Shown one piece after another: positions 16,418 through 60,284 of a stretch of DNA of 64,000 nt; the stretch's first letter is position 1; each line of letters opens with the position of its first letter. The notes under the pieces are model-generated. The model had not been told where the DNA came from. It made no database searches and was given only the letters and a program-made list of their open reading frames with translations. The DNA lies in the NCBI RefSeq assembly GCF_044324785.1, contig NZ_CP172127.1, one strand, 5' to 3'. Position numbers and translations under genes: made by a program. The DNA comes from Escherichia coli. GTDB lineage: Bacteria > Pseudomonadota > Gammaproteobacteria > Enterobacterales > Enterobacteriaceae.

Positions 16418-20125
<3,708 letters not shown>

Positions 20126-20128
20126 CGC

Positions 20129-20848
20129 TTATTCCCATGCATGAGGCGCAAAAAGATAGCCTTTGTTACGCACAGTTTTAATGCGATAAGGTTCTGCGGC
20201 GTTATCGAGCAGTTTTTTTCTTAACCGCGAAATAGCCACGTCCACGCTACGATCCAGTCCGTCATAACTGACGCCACGTAAATTTTTCAGCAATGCATCG
20301 CGGTCCATGATTTGCCCAGCATGGGTAGCTAATTCCCACAATAATTCGAAATCAGCTGTCGAGAGCGAGATTTCAGTGTTAGCCAGGGTGACTACGCGGT
20401 TGATAGGATCGATGGTCAACGTGCCGAAATGCAGGGCTTTGTAGGGAGTCAGAGACGTTTCCTGAAGACCTTTGCTCAGTGTGGCTTGCTCATTTTGACG
20501 CAAATGCAAACGTAAGCGCGCTAACAATACAGCAGGGGGCGTCGTTTTGAGAATATAGTCGCAGGCACCCATTTCCAGTGCCAGGATGTGGTTCATATCG
20601 CTATCGAGAGAGGTTAGAAGAACAATCGGTCCGGACCACTTTGCGCGTAAATCACGACAAATGGTCATGCCGTCCTTGCCTGGTAGCATGATATCGAGTA
20701 ACACCAAATCCGGATTTTCTCGCAGAATAGTTTCTTCGGCCTGGTCGCCGCGCGGCTCTACGGTAACCTGCATATCATGTTTTGCCAGGTACGCGGCAAT
20801 CAGTGAACCGACTTCCGCATCATCTTCAACAAATACGATAGTGTTCAT
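20129..20848 (-). CDS. rstA: OmpR-family response regulator RstA
   Basis: Start at internal Met MNTIVFVEDDAEV... giving 239 aa; receiver plus winged-helix. Confidence 0.9.
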   Translation of the reverse strand: MNTIVFVEDDAEVGSLIAAYLAKHDMQVTVEPRGDQAEETILRENPDLVLLDIMLPGKDGMTICRDLRAKWSGPIVLLTSLDSDMNHILALEMGACDYILKTTPPAVLLARLRLHLRQNEQATLSKGLQETSLTPYKALHFGTLTIDPINRVVTLANTEISLSTADFELLWELATHAGQIMDRDALLKNLRGVSYDGLDRSVDVAISRLRKKLLDNAAEPYRIKTVRNKGYLFAPHAWE

Positions 20849-29094: not shown

Positions 29095-29505
29095 GCTTGT
29101 CCCCGTTTTTTCTTCCTTTGCTAATAATAATGTCTTTTTCGCTCCGTCATCATAACGAAAATCAAACCGCTCAGGTAAAGAAGTGAAAATATTTTGAGTT
29201 AATTCTTAAGCTATGATACAAATCAGGCGTGTTCAACTACCGAGGACAATTATCATCCGCGATGACGAGAAGCAACACTGCGGATAATTGTAATATTATG
29301 GACAATTTGTTCAGGGCGTTATTTTCTACATTTACCCATCTTCGTACCTCATCCACTATCTTGCTCGTAGGTGAGCAGCACTGGCGCAACGCGCTTTAGT
29401 CCTTACTTCTGCCTAAGCTTGCGCCATGCGCGGAGCTTGACCACTTTACTTTGGTTTCGCTGAATTAAGCGAAAATTAAAATAATTCTCTTGCAGGAGAA
29501 GGACA

Positions 29506-29871: not shown

Positions 29872-30187
29872 ATGGGTTCACGCCGCCTGGCTGGCATTGG
29901 CAATCGTGCTGGAAATCGTTGCTAACGTCTTTTTGAAATTTTCTGACGGCTTTCGTCGCAAAATATTTGGCTTGCTCTCTCTGGCGGCGGTGCTGGCTGC
30001 CTTTAGTGCGCTTTCTCAGGCCGTTAAAGGGATCGACTTGTCTGTCGCTTATGCATTGTGGGGCGGATTTGGTATTGCCGCCACGTTAGCCGCAGGTTGG
30101 ATCTTGTTTGGTCAACGGTTAAATCGTAAAGGCTGGATTGGCCTGGTCTTGCTGTTGGCTGGAATGATCATGGTGAAACTTGCCTGA
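29858..30187 (+). CDS. mdtI: SMR-family spermidine/multidrug exporter subunit
   Basis: ORF 109 aa, overlaps mdtJ end by 14 nt. Confidence 0.9.
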
Positions 30188-30193
30188 TGAACA

Positions 30194-30220
30194 CGCTGCC
30201 CGCACTGTCGGGCAGCGTTT
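30194..30220. terminator. Bidirectional terminator between mdtI and ydgD
   Basis: CGCTGCCCG-cactgt-CGGGCAGCG hairpin followed by TTT...TTTTT. Confidence 0.7.
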
Positions 30221-30225
30221 GAACA

Positions 30226-31047
30226 TTATTTTTGCGACAGTTGATCCAGCTTGTCGCGAAAACCGGTAACAGAAATGGCCCGGTTATCGGCGCGCCAGCG
30301 ATCTTTCGCGGCAGGAGCCGAACTTTGCACCCCAATTAATTGCCAGCCGTCATCGGTATGCAACATCAGCGGCGAACCGCTGTCACCCGGCAAGGTATCG
30401 CACTGATGTGACATCACCGACGTTTGCGCCCAGCCAGTCACTTCACAGTTTTGATGACTGTACAACGTATCGAGATGATCTTCAGGGTATCCTGCCTGAG
30501 TCACTTTACGACCTGCCGCTTTTAATGCGGCGGTAAGCGCGGCTTTATCTCCCTCAAATAACGGCAACGGCGTAATGCCAGAAGGGGGATTACGTAGCAC
30601 AATCAAACCGAAGTCCCACGGCGCAGCTGCGGGAGGAACAATCCAACCATCCCCATCTGCTTTTAACCGCTTTCCCAGTGTCGGATCAACGCGGCCTTCT
30701 ATGTCGTGGATCTCATAGCGCCAAAGACCTTTATTTGACACGAAACGCAGCGCTACCGCTTTATCGGCTTTACCCTTTGGCGGCGTCAATAAACAGTGTC
30801 CTGCCGTTAATGCCAGATTGGGTGCAATCAGCGTCGCCGTACATAAATTGCCGCTGGCCGTTTCCAGTTGGCCAACCGCATCCCACGGTGATTGGGTCGT
30901 GTCATTCACTGGCACACGATCATCATGACCAAAAAACAGGGTGCTGACCTCATCGTTTGCCGATTTGGCAACGTCTGGTTTATCTGCAAACACAAAAGCA
31001 GACGTCAAACTAATTGCACCCAACACTACAGCAATGGTTGTACGCAT
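30226..31047 (-). CDS. ydgD: trypsin-like secreted serine peptidase
   Basis: ORF 273 aa with signal peptide; TAGHC and GDSGSPL catalytic motifs. Confidence 0.88.
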
Positions 31048-31146
31048 ATCACACTCTGGTGGGTAATTATGATTATTAAAAGCAAACCCTCATAAATACT
31101 ATAGACGGGACGGGATGAAAGTGGGAGTAAAATCAGATAACTACGA

Positions 31147-31230
31147 TCAGGAAAGATAAAAACGGGCGGCAATCAGTGCGCATAAAATAAGGATGATAAG
31201 AATGAACTCAAAGCGATAACGGCCCACCAT
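31147..31230 (-). CDS. ydgU: 27-aa hydrophobic small protein (MVGRYRFEFILIILILCALIAARFYLS)
   Basis: Not in ORF track (too short); ATG preceded by GGAGGG Shine-Dalgarno 4 nt upstream; single TM helix; recalled small gene in this interval. Confidence 0.6.
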   Translation of the reverse strand: MVGRYRFEFILIILILCALIAARFYLS

Positions 31231-31322
31231 ACTACCCTCCGCTAAAGGCGGTGCTAAACGTTACCCGCTTAGCACCGTAATTTTCAGGCGCGAGGGGGCG
31301 CGCCAGCATTACTGTTGAAAAC

Positions 31323-31631
31323 TTACGCTGCGGGTTGTGCAGCAGGTTTTGCCGGTTGCTGATGGCTGTGTTTCTTGGCGTGTTTCTTCGCTGCCTGCGC
31401 TTTTTGTTCAGGGGCTTTCTGTTCAGCTTTGGCATTTTTATGATGCTTTTTAGCCGCCTGCGCTTTCTGGGCAGGTGCTGCTTTATGCTGTTTTTTATGA
31501 TGTGTGGTTTTCGCAGGCGCTGCTTTGGTGGTCGTCGCAGTCGGAGCAGGTGTGGTCGCAGTCTCTGCAGCAAAGGCAGCAGAAGACAGACCCATAGCAG
31601 CGGCAACAACCAGAGCTAATACTTTTTTCAT
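31323..31631 (-). CDS. asr: acid shock protein, Lys/His/Ala-rich periplasmic
   Basis: Start at internal Met [21 protein letters not shown]... giving 102 aa; low-complexity repeats. Confidence 0.92.
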
Positions 31632-31734
31632 TGTCATACCCTCAATTTGTTTTTTCATTTAACCCCACTGCGGGGCCGTTGAAATAACTATATCCCTGGG
31701 AATGGCAGACTTCCGTGAGTGGTTGGTTTCAGCG

Positions 31735-31750
31735 TGTAACGATATGTACA
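31735..31750 (-). promoter_or_regulatory. RstA-box-like site upstream of asr (TGTACATATCGTTACA)
   Basis: Minus strand matches the RstA box pattern TACA-N4-GTTACA about 105-120 bp upstream of asr start. Confidence 0.4.
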
Positions 31751-32014
31751 AACGCTGAATAAATTACAGCATTGATAATAACGTATTGTGACTTAAGGAA
31801 AATTTAGCTACCAATAATAGTAGTCTTGATCGTGTTAACTATTTTACTACTTACAAAGCGGTAGAATAACTGCGCATCAGTAATAAATGACACACAGCAA
31901 AATGAATCCGTTTATTTGGGTACTTTTAATCCTGATGACACTAGATGCGCTGCGGGAATTGGCTGGCGCTTCGTCTATTTTAGGATGGCTATTAACGTTG
32001 GTTTGAGCAGGCAA

Positions 32015-32050
32015 TAAGTCCGGACGGGTATTTACCGCAGTCCGGACTTA
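32015..32050 (-). terminator. Terminator hairpin immediately after ynfM stop
   Basis: 11-bp stem TAAGTCCGGAC / GTCCGGACTTA with 14-nt loop; U-rich stretch follows on minus strand. Confidence 0.6.
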
Positions 32051-32054
32051 TTTT

Positions 32055-33308
32055 TCAGGCGTGCAGACGACGATGCAAACGCGTCCCGACCAGCAGAGCA
32101 ATGACCAGCATCAGAGCAATAAATGCGCCGACGCCGTTCCAGCCATAGTTATGCCAGAAAACACCACCCAGCGTCCCGGCAATACTCGACCCCAGATAGT
32201 AACTGAACAGATAGAGCGAGGAGGCCTGGCCTTTAGCGCGTTTTGCGCGGGGGCCGATCCAGCTGCTGGCTACTGAGTGGGCTGCGAAGAATCCGGCTGA
32301 GAAGAGTAACATTCCGGCAAAGATCAGCCACAGCGAGCTGAATAAGGTCATCAGTAAACCAAACAGCATAACCCCCGTCGAAAACAACATCACCGGACCG
32401 CGTCCATAGCGGGTGGTCATGGTTCCGGCTTTGGGTGAGCTCCATGTACCGGTCAAATAAGCCAGCGATAATAAGCCAACCACGGCCTGACTGACATGCC
32501 AGGGGGAGAGCATCAACCGATAGCCGATGTAATTAAACAGCGTGACGAACGACCCCATCAGCAAAAAGCCTTCTGCGAACAATAACGGTAATCCCCGGTC
32601 ACGCCAGTGCAGACGAAAGTTGATAAATAACGTCTTTGGTCGCAGGGAAGTCGGGCGAAAATGGCGTGATTCCGGGAGGATTTTCCAGAACATCAACGCC
32701 GAGGCCAGCGCGAAACAGCCGATAGCCGCCAGAGCAATTCGCCAGTTGAAAAAGTCCGTGAAGACACCGCTAATTAAGCGTCCGCTCATGCCGCCAATTG
32801 AGTTGCCGCTGATATACAACCCCATCGAAAAGGCCACGAAACTGGGGTGGATTTCCTCGCTAAGATAAGTCATGCCAACAGCTGCCACGCCACTTAACGA
32901 AAGCCCAATCAAGGCGCGCATAATCAAAATGCCGTGCCAGCTGGTCATCATTGTCGAAAGTAACGTACAAATGGAGGCCAACAGTAGCGCCGTGACCATC
33001 ACTGGTTTGCGACCAATGGCATCGGATAGCGGGCCAGTAAACAGCAAACCGATAGCCAACATCGCCGTGGAAATGGACAGTGAAATACTACTGTTCGCGG
33101 GCGTTAAGCCAAACTCTTGTGAAAGCACCGGAAGGATAGGTTGCACACAATAGAGAAGTGCGAAGGTTGCCAGTCCGGCAGAGAACAGCGCCAGGGTGAC
33201 GCGCATAAATTGCGGCGTACCGCGTTTAATAAATTGATTTGGCTGAGAAATGCTTTGCTTGTCAGTGTCGCTTGCCGGAGCGCCATCAACAGTTGTAGTA
33301 CGGCTCAC
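32055..33308 (-). CDS. ynfM: MFS transporter
   Basis: ORF 417 aa, 12-TM MFS pattern. Confidence 0.9.
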   Translation of the reverse strand: MSRTTTVDGAPASDTDKQSISQPNQFIKRGTPQFMRVTLALFSAGLATFALLYCVQPILPVLSQEFGLTPANSSISLSISTAMLAIGLLFTGPLSDAIGRKPVMVTALLLASICTLLSTMMTSWHGILIMRALIGLSLSGVAAVGMTYLSEEIHPSFVAFSMGLYISGNSIGGMSGRLISGVFTDFFNWRIALAAIGCFALASALMFWKILPESRHFRPTSLRPKTLFINFRLHWRDRGLPLLFAEGFLLMGSFVTLFNYIGYRLMLSPWHVSQAVVGLLSLAYLTGTWSSPKAGTMTTRYGRGPVMLFSTGVMLFGLLMTLFSSLWLIFAGMLLFSAGFFAAHSVASSWIGPRAKRAKGQASSLYLFSYYLGSSIAGTLGGVFWHNYGWNGVGAFIALMLVIALLVGTRLHRRLHA

Positions 33309-60030: not shown

Positions 60031-60284
60031 ATTAATGGGTTAACTATGTCGGTTAAACGACCAGCCAACTGAAAAAGCGGAAACCTGATTACAGGTTGCC
60101 AGATAAGGCAATGAGCTACCTGGCGCGGAACGGACTGATAAGTATGGGGAATGTTTTACGATGAACCTTTAGACTAAAGAGTTTGTAACGCTATGTAAGT
60201 GATTTTTTCTGGTTTAGATATTTATATGTCCGGCCAAATTGAGGTGTGTTTAAATGTAATTGCACATTGATTGTAGGAGGAATA

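Follow-up and report, generated by a model that had tools for sequence, protein, structure and literature searches.

The ydgU locus

The window analyzed here, a stretch of 64,000 nucleotides of Escherichia coli DNA, carries on its minus strand at 31147-31230 a short ORF of 27 codons plus a TGA stop codon. The ORF begins with the ATG at 31230-31228 and ends with the TGA at 31149-31147, and its exact product is MVGRYRFEFILIILILCALIAARFYLS. Translation, a RefSeq coding sequence, NCBIfam matches and conservation all identify it as ydgU, also called samT. A Shine-Dalgarno (SD) sequence, GGAGGG (31235-31240, minus strand), precedes the start codon and is separated from it by the 4 nucleotides TAGT. 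The flanking genes lie on the same strand: asr upstream, across a gap of 92 nt, and ydgD downstream (30226-31047, minus strand), across a gap of 99 nt. An earlier note on this DNA, made from its letters, had described a 27-codon frame with this ATG and this peptide, GGAGGG at a spacing of 4 nt, and a position between ydgD and asr. Translation of the minus strand agrees exactly with the peptide, GGAGGG is seen at 31240-31235, and both flanking genes were confirmed, asr by NCBIfam and RefSeq, and ydgD, itself an ORF, by its RefSeq annotation.

The note's remark that an ORF list had passed over so short a gene is plausible, since such lists by default include nothing below 60 amino acids. A length of 27 codons is by itself of no significance, because 73 ORFs of at least 20 amino acids overlap the 4.5 kb around ydgU; it is the combination of features that is distinctive. 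The 64-kb window contains 578 ATG-started ORFs of 20-50 amino acids, 16 of which have GGAG or GAGG 4-14 nt upstream. ydgU is the only member of this class in which such a signal occurs together with a hydrophobic stretch, defined as 17 residues with a mean Kyte-Doolittle value of at least 2.5. The peptide as a whole has a GRAVY score of 1.6, and its most hydrophobic 15-mer, FEFILIILILCALIA (residues 7-21), has a mean Kyte-Doolittle value of 3.06. At 27 amino acids (family range 25-29) the protein consists of a basic N-terminus, with R4 and R6, followed by one hydrophobic helix. The predicted layout is thus a short basic cytoplasmic segment, MVGRYR, and one transmembrane helix at approximately F7-L26, which would leave almost no periplasmic tail.

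Identity and allelic variation

In strain B2.3, RefSeq annotates "ydgU: small membrane protein YdgU" (WP_000233090.1) at coordinates identical to 31147-31230; the annotation coordinates of B2.3 transfer to the window only between approximately 18.8 and 32 kb, where an ungapped comparison finds the two sequences collinear. Two NCBIfam equivalog profiles recognize the peptide above their thresholds and over its full length, residues 1-27 pairing with profile positions 1-27: small_YdgU (NF052476) scores it at 70.3 bits, where 24 are required, and NF011341 at 74.5 bits, where the cut-off is 66. A Pfam search with the peptide found no family. In K-12 MG1655, ydgU is b4601 and occupies the same position between asr and ydgD. 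The earlier note had proposed that the ORF is a small single-pass membrane protein gene annotated as ydgU in K-12, and had pointed to small-protein annotations as a check; the RefSeq entry at exactly these coordinates, the two family models and the synteny with b4601 bear this out. The ORF is therefore the known gene ydgU, renamed samT in 2026, and its identification, against which no observation made here speaks, is not new. Its first identification and annotation, in 2008, have been credited to Hemm et al. (PMC13425233).

A 601-bp query around the ORF found matches in 5,422 of 5,426 complete E. coli genomes, and the SD sequence and the ORF are present in the same number. Among the matches listed, the ORF is always annotated as a coding sequence, labeled either "hypothetical protein" or "ydgU: small membrane protein YdgU". 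The K-12 peptide, MVGRYRFEFILIILILCALITARFYLS, shares 26 of 27 residues with that of the window. They differ at residue 21, which is Ala here (GCC, 31170-31168, minus strand) and Thr in MG1655 (ACC), and the genes differ by one additional synonymous change. The K-12 locus otherwise resembles this one in its SD sequence, its upstream hairpins, its RstA-box promoter and its position relative to asr and ydgD. The window allele is the commoner of the two: the 94 nt comprising the SD sequence and ORF are identical in 3,585 of the 5,422 genomes.

Conservation of ydgU outside E. coli

We compared 80 loci from species-representative genomes, covering about 20 genera of Enterobacteriaceae and Erwiniaceae; these include Escherichia, Citrobacter, Kosakonia, Kluyvera, Buttiauxella, Cedecea, Franconibacter, Siccibacter, Mangrovibacter, Erwinia, Pantoea and Mixta, among others. 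The loci were collected by using ydgD as the anchor, which biases the sample in that linkage of ydgU to ydgD is partly built in; neither Salmonella nor Klebsiella is among the 80. A phmmer search of all stop-to-stop segments detected a YdgU-like frame on the ydgD strand in 78 of the 80 loci. In nearly all of these ydgD-anchored loci the orthologue ends about 100 nt before ydgD, the exception being Mangrovibacter, where a second asr intervenes. The orthologues are 25-29 amino acids long, and all but one start with ATG. Their start codons are preceded, at a distance of 2-9 nt, by an SD-like tetramer, almost always GGAG or GAGG. In public databases most of them are annotated as "hypothetical protein" or are unannotated.

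Among 72 distinct core coding sequences, nucleotide diversity at codon positions 1, 2 and 3 is 0.32, 0.15 and 0.57, respectively, and the uncorrected pN/pS ratio is 0.32 (0.23/0.72). Residues E8 and C17 are invariant, while R4, Y5, F7, L11 and F24 are each found in at least 69 of the 72 sequences; the window peptide has all seven of these family residues. Position 21, at which the window and K-12 alleles differ, is Ala in 50 and Thr in 22 of the 72 sequences. The substitution pattern, as read from these alignments, is that of a protein-coding and deeply conserved gene. The earlier note had suggested conservation of the ORF and its ribosome-binding site across species as a check, and would have had the gene doubted if the frame were confined to E. 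coli and evidence of translation were lacking. Neither holds: the frame occurs in 78 of 80 loci reaching beyond E. coli, and therefore is not confined to that species, its ATG and GGAG have been retained with very few exceptions, and translation has been observed by ribosome profiling (see below).

One locus appears to record the loss of the gene. In Intestinirhabdus alba (locus L010, approximately 2290-2400), asr, the hairpin and GGAGGGG are kept, but ydgU has lost its start codon and its frame is degraded, the remnant reading ...HRRFKVILIALFIVRS*. The loss seems specific to this lineage.

Promoter and operon context

The gene upstream of ydgU, asr (31323-31631, minus strand), encodes an acid-shock periplasmic protein, as identified by NCBIfam NF033636 (99.1 bits, cut-off 50) and by RefSeq. 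Of the 80 loci, 76 have an Asr-like ORF ahead of ydgU, and the order asr-ydgU-ydgD is likewise found in 76 of these ydgD-anchored loci. The stop-to-stop frames containing Asr range from about 88 to 222 codons among species (loci L002-L081), a variation consistent with expansion and contraction of basic repeats.

The promoter region of asr-ydgU contains the RstA box TACATATCGTTACA at 31735-31748 (minus strand), 117 nt upstream of the asr ATG. It is the sole exact match in the window to the consensus TACATNTNGTTACA, which reportedly goes back to Ogasawara et al. in 2007; at one mismatch or fewer, the number of matches expected by chance in the window is 0.27. A similar site, TACATAGCGTTACA at 60184-60197 (minus strand), has one mismatch to the consensus and is probably a chance occurrence, as 3 of 100 shuffled sequences give at least 2 matches. 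With up to one mismatch, an RstA box is present upstream and on the same strand in 41 of the 80 loci. The only other matches in these loci, on either strand, precede the second asr copy in the two Mangrovibacter loci. The box is thus conserved across loci and, apart from the Mangrovibacter asr2, specific to the asr-ydgU promoter. A sigma-70 promoter scan of 30900-31900 found no site. The genes of the cognate two-component system also lie inside the window, 11 kb from ydgU: the sensor kinase gene rstB (18824-20125, minus strand; NCBIfam NF007898, 832.9 bits, cut-off 478) and the response regulator gene rstA (20129-20848, minus strand; NF007977, 484.6 bits, cut-off 330), both also supported by annotation and rstB by its ORF.

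Two genera depart from the common arrangement. In Franconibacter (L021, 2190-2330; L022, 2200-2330) the asr ORF is absent and ydgU is kept, 131 nt (L021) or 114 nt (L022) downstream of an RstA-box promoter that is homologous to Pasr of E. coli. In this genus ydgU has therefore been retained under RstA-type control without asr, which suggests, on the basis of these comparisons, that SamT is still under selection where asr is absent. In Mangrovibacter (L064 and L065, approximately 1180-2500) asr has been duplicated, giving the order asr1, ydgU, RstA box, asr2, ydgD, with ydgU behind the first copy and the recognizable RstA box before the second.

RefSeq annotates two other small proteins nearby on the plus strand: a 23-amino-acid "hypothetical protein" (WP_211114082.1) at 31935-32006, in the asr-ynfM intergenic region, and YdgV, of 56 amino acids, at 29229-29399, upstream of mdtJ.

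Hairpins in the asr-ydgU spacer

The 92-nt spacer between asr and ydgU is predicted to fold into two hairpins, both on the minus strand. Shortly after the asr stop codon there is a short GC-rich hairpin, GGCGCG-CCCCCU-CGCGCC (31287-31304), which is found in Escherichia and in some Citrobacter loci. The second, at 31249-31277, is a stem-loop of 12 bp, CGGUGCUAAGCG / GGUAA / CGUUUAGCACCG, which appears in both the minimum free energy and the centroid folds. It is trailed by CCUUUAGC, which runs into the ydgU SD sequence. Of 76 distinct upstream sequences, 63 contain a perfect hairpin, 7 bp or longer, that ends 2-16 nt ahead of the SD sequence, versus 7% of shuffled sequences. Such a hairpin occurs in most of the approximately 20 genera compared, and the nucleotides between it and the SD sequence are T-rich. 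The stems themselves are clade-specific, examples being CGGTGCTAAGCG, CGGCGCT, CAGCGCCCG and AAACACCCGG. RNAalifold, applied to a MAFFT alignment of 24 upstream regions, found no structure; the clade-specific stems were misaligned.

To judge from its sequence, the hairpin resembles an intrinsic terminator placed directly against the ribosome-binding site of ydgU. A terminator scan did not call it, because the T-run, CCUUUAGC, is too weak in E. coli. We infer that it may act as a leaky terminator, or as a stabilizer of the 3' end, that would set the ratio of Asr to SamT. The main text of the paper describing SamT makes no mention of a terminator or hairpin in the asr-samT operon (PMC13425233).

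The ydgU-ydgD interval

Between ydgU and ydgD lies a block of 48 nt, GTAGnnnnCTGATTTTACTCCCACTTT...CCCGTCTATAGT (31097-31144, minus strand), that is conserved in nearly all 80 loci and includes TATAGT at 31103-31098. In Tenebrionibacter (L062) the block and ydgD are kept and both asr and ydgU are absent; the block persists before ydgD there without the other two genes and therefore goes with ydgD. It possibly serves as a promoter that includes a site for an activator. It contains no match to a sigma-70 -35 element and has no Rfam match. Two more specific assignments were rejected by eye: a sigma-E promoter, for which the spacing is wrong, and a CpxR box, which is not conserved in Erwiniaceae. 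The terminator scan called no intrinsic terminator between ydgU and ydgD in E. coli.

YdgD is a trypsin-like serine peptidase of the periplasm, and its gene neighbor Asr is a Lys-rich periplasmic protein that is said to be proteolytically processed (a report attributed to Seputiene, 2003). The invariant neighborhood, in which a protease gene stands beside that of a processed Lys-rich protein, hints that YdgD belongs to the same module as asr-ydgU. One paper that names both genes draws no connection between Asr and YdgD. At pH 4.4 the translation efficiency of ydgD rises by a log2 value of 2.16 (Table S4 of PMC10746267).

Expression and function of YdgU in K-12

Translation of ydgU, for which the earlier note had proposed a check against ribosome-profiling data, has been reported for K-12. 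At pH 4.4 it is the most strongly induced small ORF, with a log2 fold change of 9.22 by Ribo-seq and 12.39 by RNA (PMC10746267). It was also retrieved by ribosome profiling among the small proteins induced, in a PhoQ-dependent manner, by low Mg2+ (PMC11429745). In the same study promoter activity came from the region upstream of asr and was negligible immediately upstream of ydgU, GFP-YdgU was located at the cell periphery or membrane, and neither deletion nor overexpression of ydgU gave a growth phenotype under low Mg2+; epitope tagging of the genomic copy had been reported earlier (PMC11429745).

The 2026 paper in NAR that renamed the gene samT describes asr and samT as an RstA-dependent operon induced at pH 5 (PMC13425233). 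There, a Pasr reporter regains its negative feedback when samT alone is supplied in trans, and this feedback is abolished in rstA D52A and D52E mutants and in rstB mutants. In a two-hybrid assay with overproduced fusions, T18-SamT and T25-RstB gave a strong signal, and PhoQ and EnvZ gave weaker ones (PMC13425233). The evidence for translation, membrane localization, co-transcription with asr, interaction with RstB and feedback thus comes from the literature and concerns the T21 allele of K-12. We infer that the A21 allele of the window behaves in the same way.

Interpretation of the locus

The reading that we favor, with a probability of about nine in ten, is that ydgU (samT) is the second gene of the asr operon and encodes a membrane peptide that binds RstB and so gives negative feedback on RstBA. 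To this reading the present DNA contributes the ORF, its SD sequence, the hydrophobic helix, the family membership, an operon-like context with an RstA box, and coding conservation. Transcription would begin at the RstA-box promoter before asr and would be induced by acid, and also by low Mg2+ through PhoQP acting on rstAB. The transcript would then pass through the hairpins of the 92-nt spacer, and the strong SD sequence of ydgU itself would drive translation of the peptide. Once in the membrane, YdgU would bind the sensor kinase RstB and reduce phosphotransfer to RstA, so that RstBA would limit its own output at acid pH in a negative feedback of the MgrB type.

It could be argued instead that the peptide is real and that its main role concerns another partner in the envelope, such as the YdgD protease or the handling of Asr, the effect on RstB being secondary. 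This would fit the placement of ydgU, which in almost every locus sampled lies about 100 nt before ydgD, the increased translation efficiency of ydgD at pH 4.4 (PMC10746267), the two-hybrid signals with PhoQ and EnvZ (PMC13425233), and the lack of a growth phenotype in ydgU mutants (PMC11429745). The linkage to ydgD, however, is partly an artefact of the ydgD-anchored search, it is interrupted in Mangrovibacter by the second asr, and Tenebrionibacter has ydgD and the block upstream of it without ydgU. Moreover, samT alone suffices to restore feedback in trans, and the RstB-RstA phosphorylation pathway is needed for it (PMC13425233), so that we consider a main role with another partner improbable. 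YdgU may also have some role with partners other than RstB. A further suggestion, that ydgU is a leader peptide or uORF whose translation, and not its product, controls the downstream ydgD, draws on the same conserved spacing of about 100 nt and on the fact that no intrinsic terminator was called between the two genes in E. coli. Against it, the amino acids are under purifying selection, with E8 and C17 invariant, which is unexpected for a simple uORF, and Tenebrionibacter retains the block upstream of ydgD although it lacks ydgU. In addition, asr and ydgU rise about 500-fold or more at pH 4.4, whereas ydgD appears only in the translation-efficiency table (PMC10746267), and the product is found at the membrane (PMC11429745) and is active in trans (PMC13425233). 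A leader peptide thus has only a very slight chance of being the correct explanation.

Many small hydrophobic peptides of enterobacteria are type I toxins, and short ORFs are abundant, as the 73 frames in 4.5 kb illustrate; both facts could favor a chance frame or a toxin-like hydrophobic peptide with no regulatory role. Yet codon periodicity is conserved across two bacterial families, the peptide matches an NCBIfam equivalog, and ribosome profiling (PMC10746267) and epitope tagging (PMC11429745) support a stable product. Conservation excludes a chance ORF. As for membership in a type I toxin-antitoxin system, an Rfam search (E<=1) of 30000-32500 found no family, and thus no antisense or sRNA match, and overexpression is harmless, with a negligible impact on growth (PMC11429745). 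We assign next to no probability to an explanation of either sort.

Comparison with known systems

MgrB is a 47-amino-acid inner-membrane inhibitor of PhoQ. The small single-pass YdgU resembles it in binding the kinase of the two-component system that activates its own expression, a comparison also made in PMC13425233. The two differ in structure and in gene context. YdgU has essentially nothing in the periplasm, where MgrB carries a functional tail that contains cysteines; and mgrB is a monocistronic gene, whereas ydgU stands at the distal end of an operon that also encodes a periplasmic protein. BLASTP of YdgU against MgrB gave no alignment at E<=100, and there is thus no detectable similarity in sequence; what the two share is their mode of action. 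A second parallel is the UgtS-UgtL operon of Salmonella: there too, a two-component system drives an operon whose products modulate that same system, one positively and the other negatively (PMC13425233). The likeness to asr-samT is one of operon logic. UgtS antagonizes UgtL and both act on PhoQ, whereas Asr and SamT act independently of one another, on RstBA and at different pH (PMC13425233).

Implications

The SD sequence and the hydrophobicity of its product, both read from the letters alone, sufficed to recover a genuine gene of 27 codons. For the favored reading, in which SamT restrains RstBA, the comparative data lend modest support to the published model, through the deep conservation of the peptide with its invariant E8 and C17, the conservation of the RstA box, and a lineage in which samT is kept and asr is not. 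They also draw attention to two minor leads, the junction of hairpin and SD sequence and the block before ydgD. A broader proposal joins two claims, that the spacer between asr and ydgU works as a conserved regulatory device and that asr, ydgU and ydgD form a three-gene module of the acid-stressed envelope; we offer this combination tentatively and think it rather unlikely to hold in full. If the hairpin before ydgU is indeed leaky, it would allow a massive build-up of Asr and would hold production of SamT, the kinase inhibitor, at a lower and fixed ratio to it.
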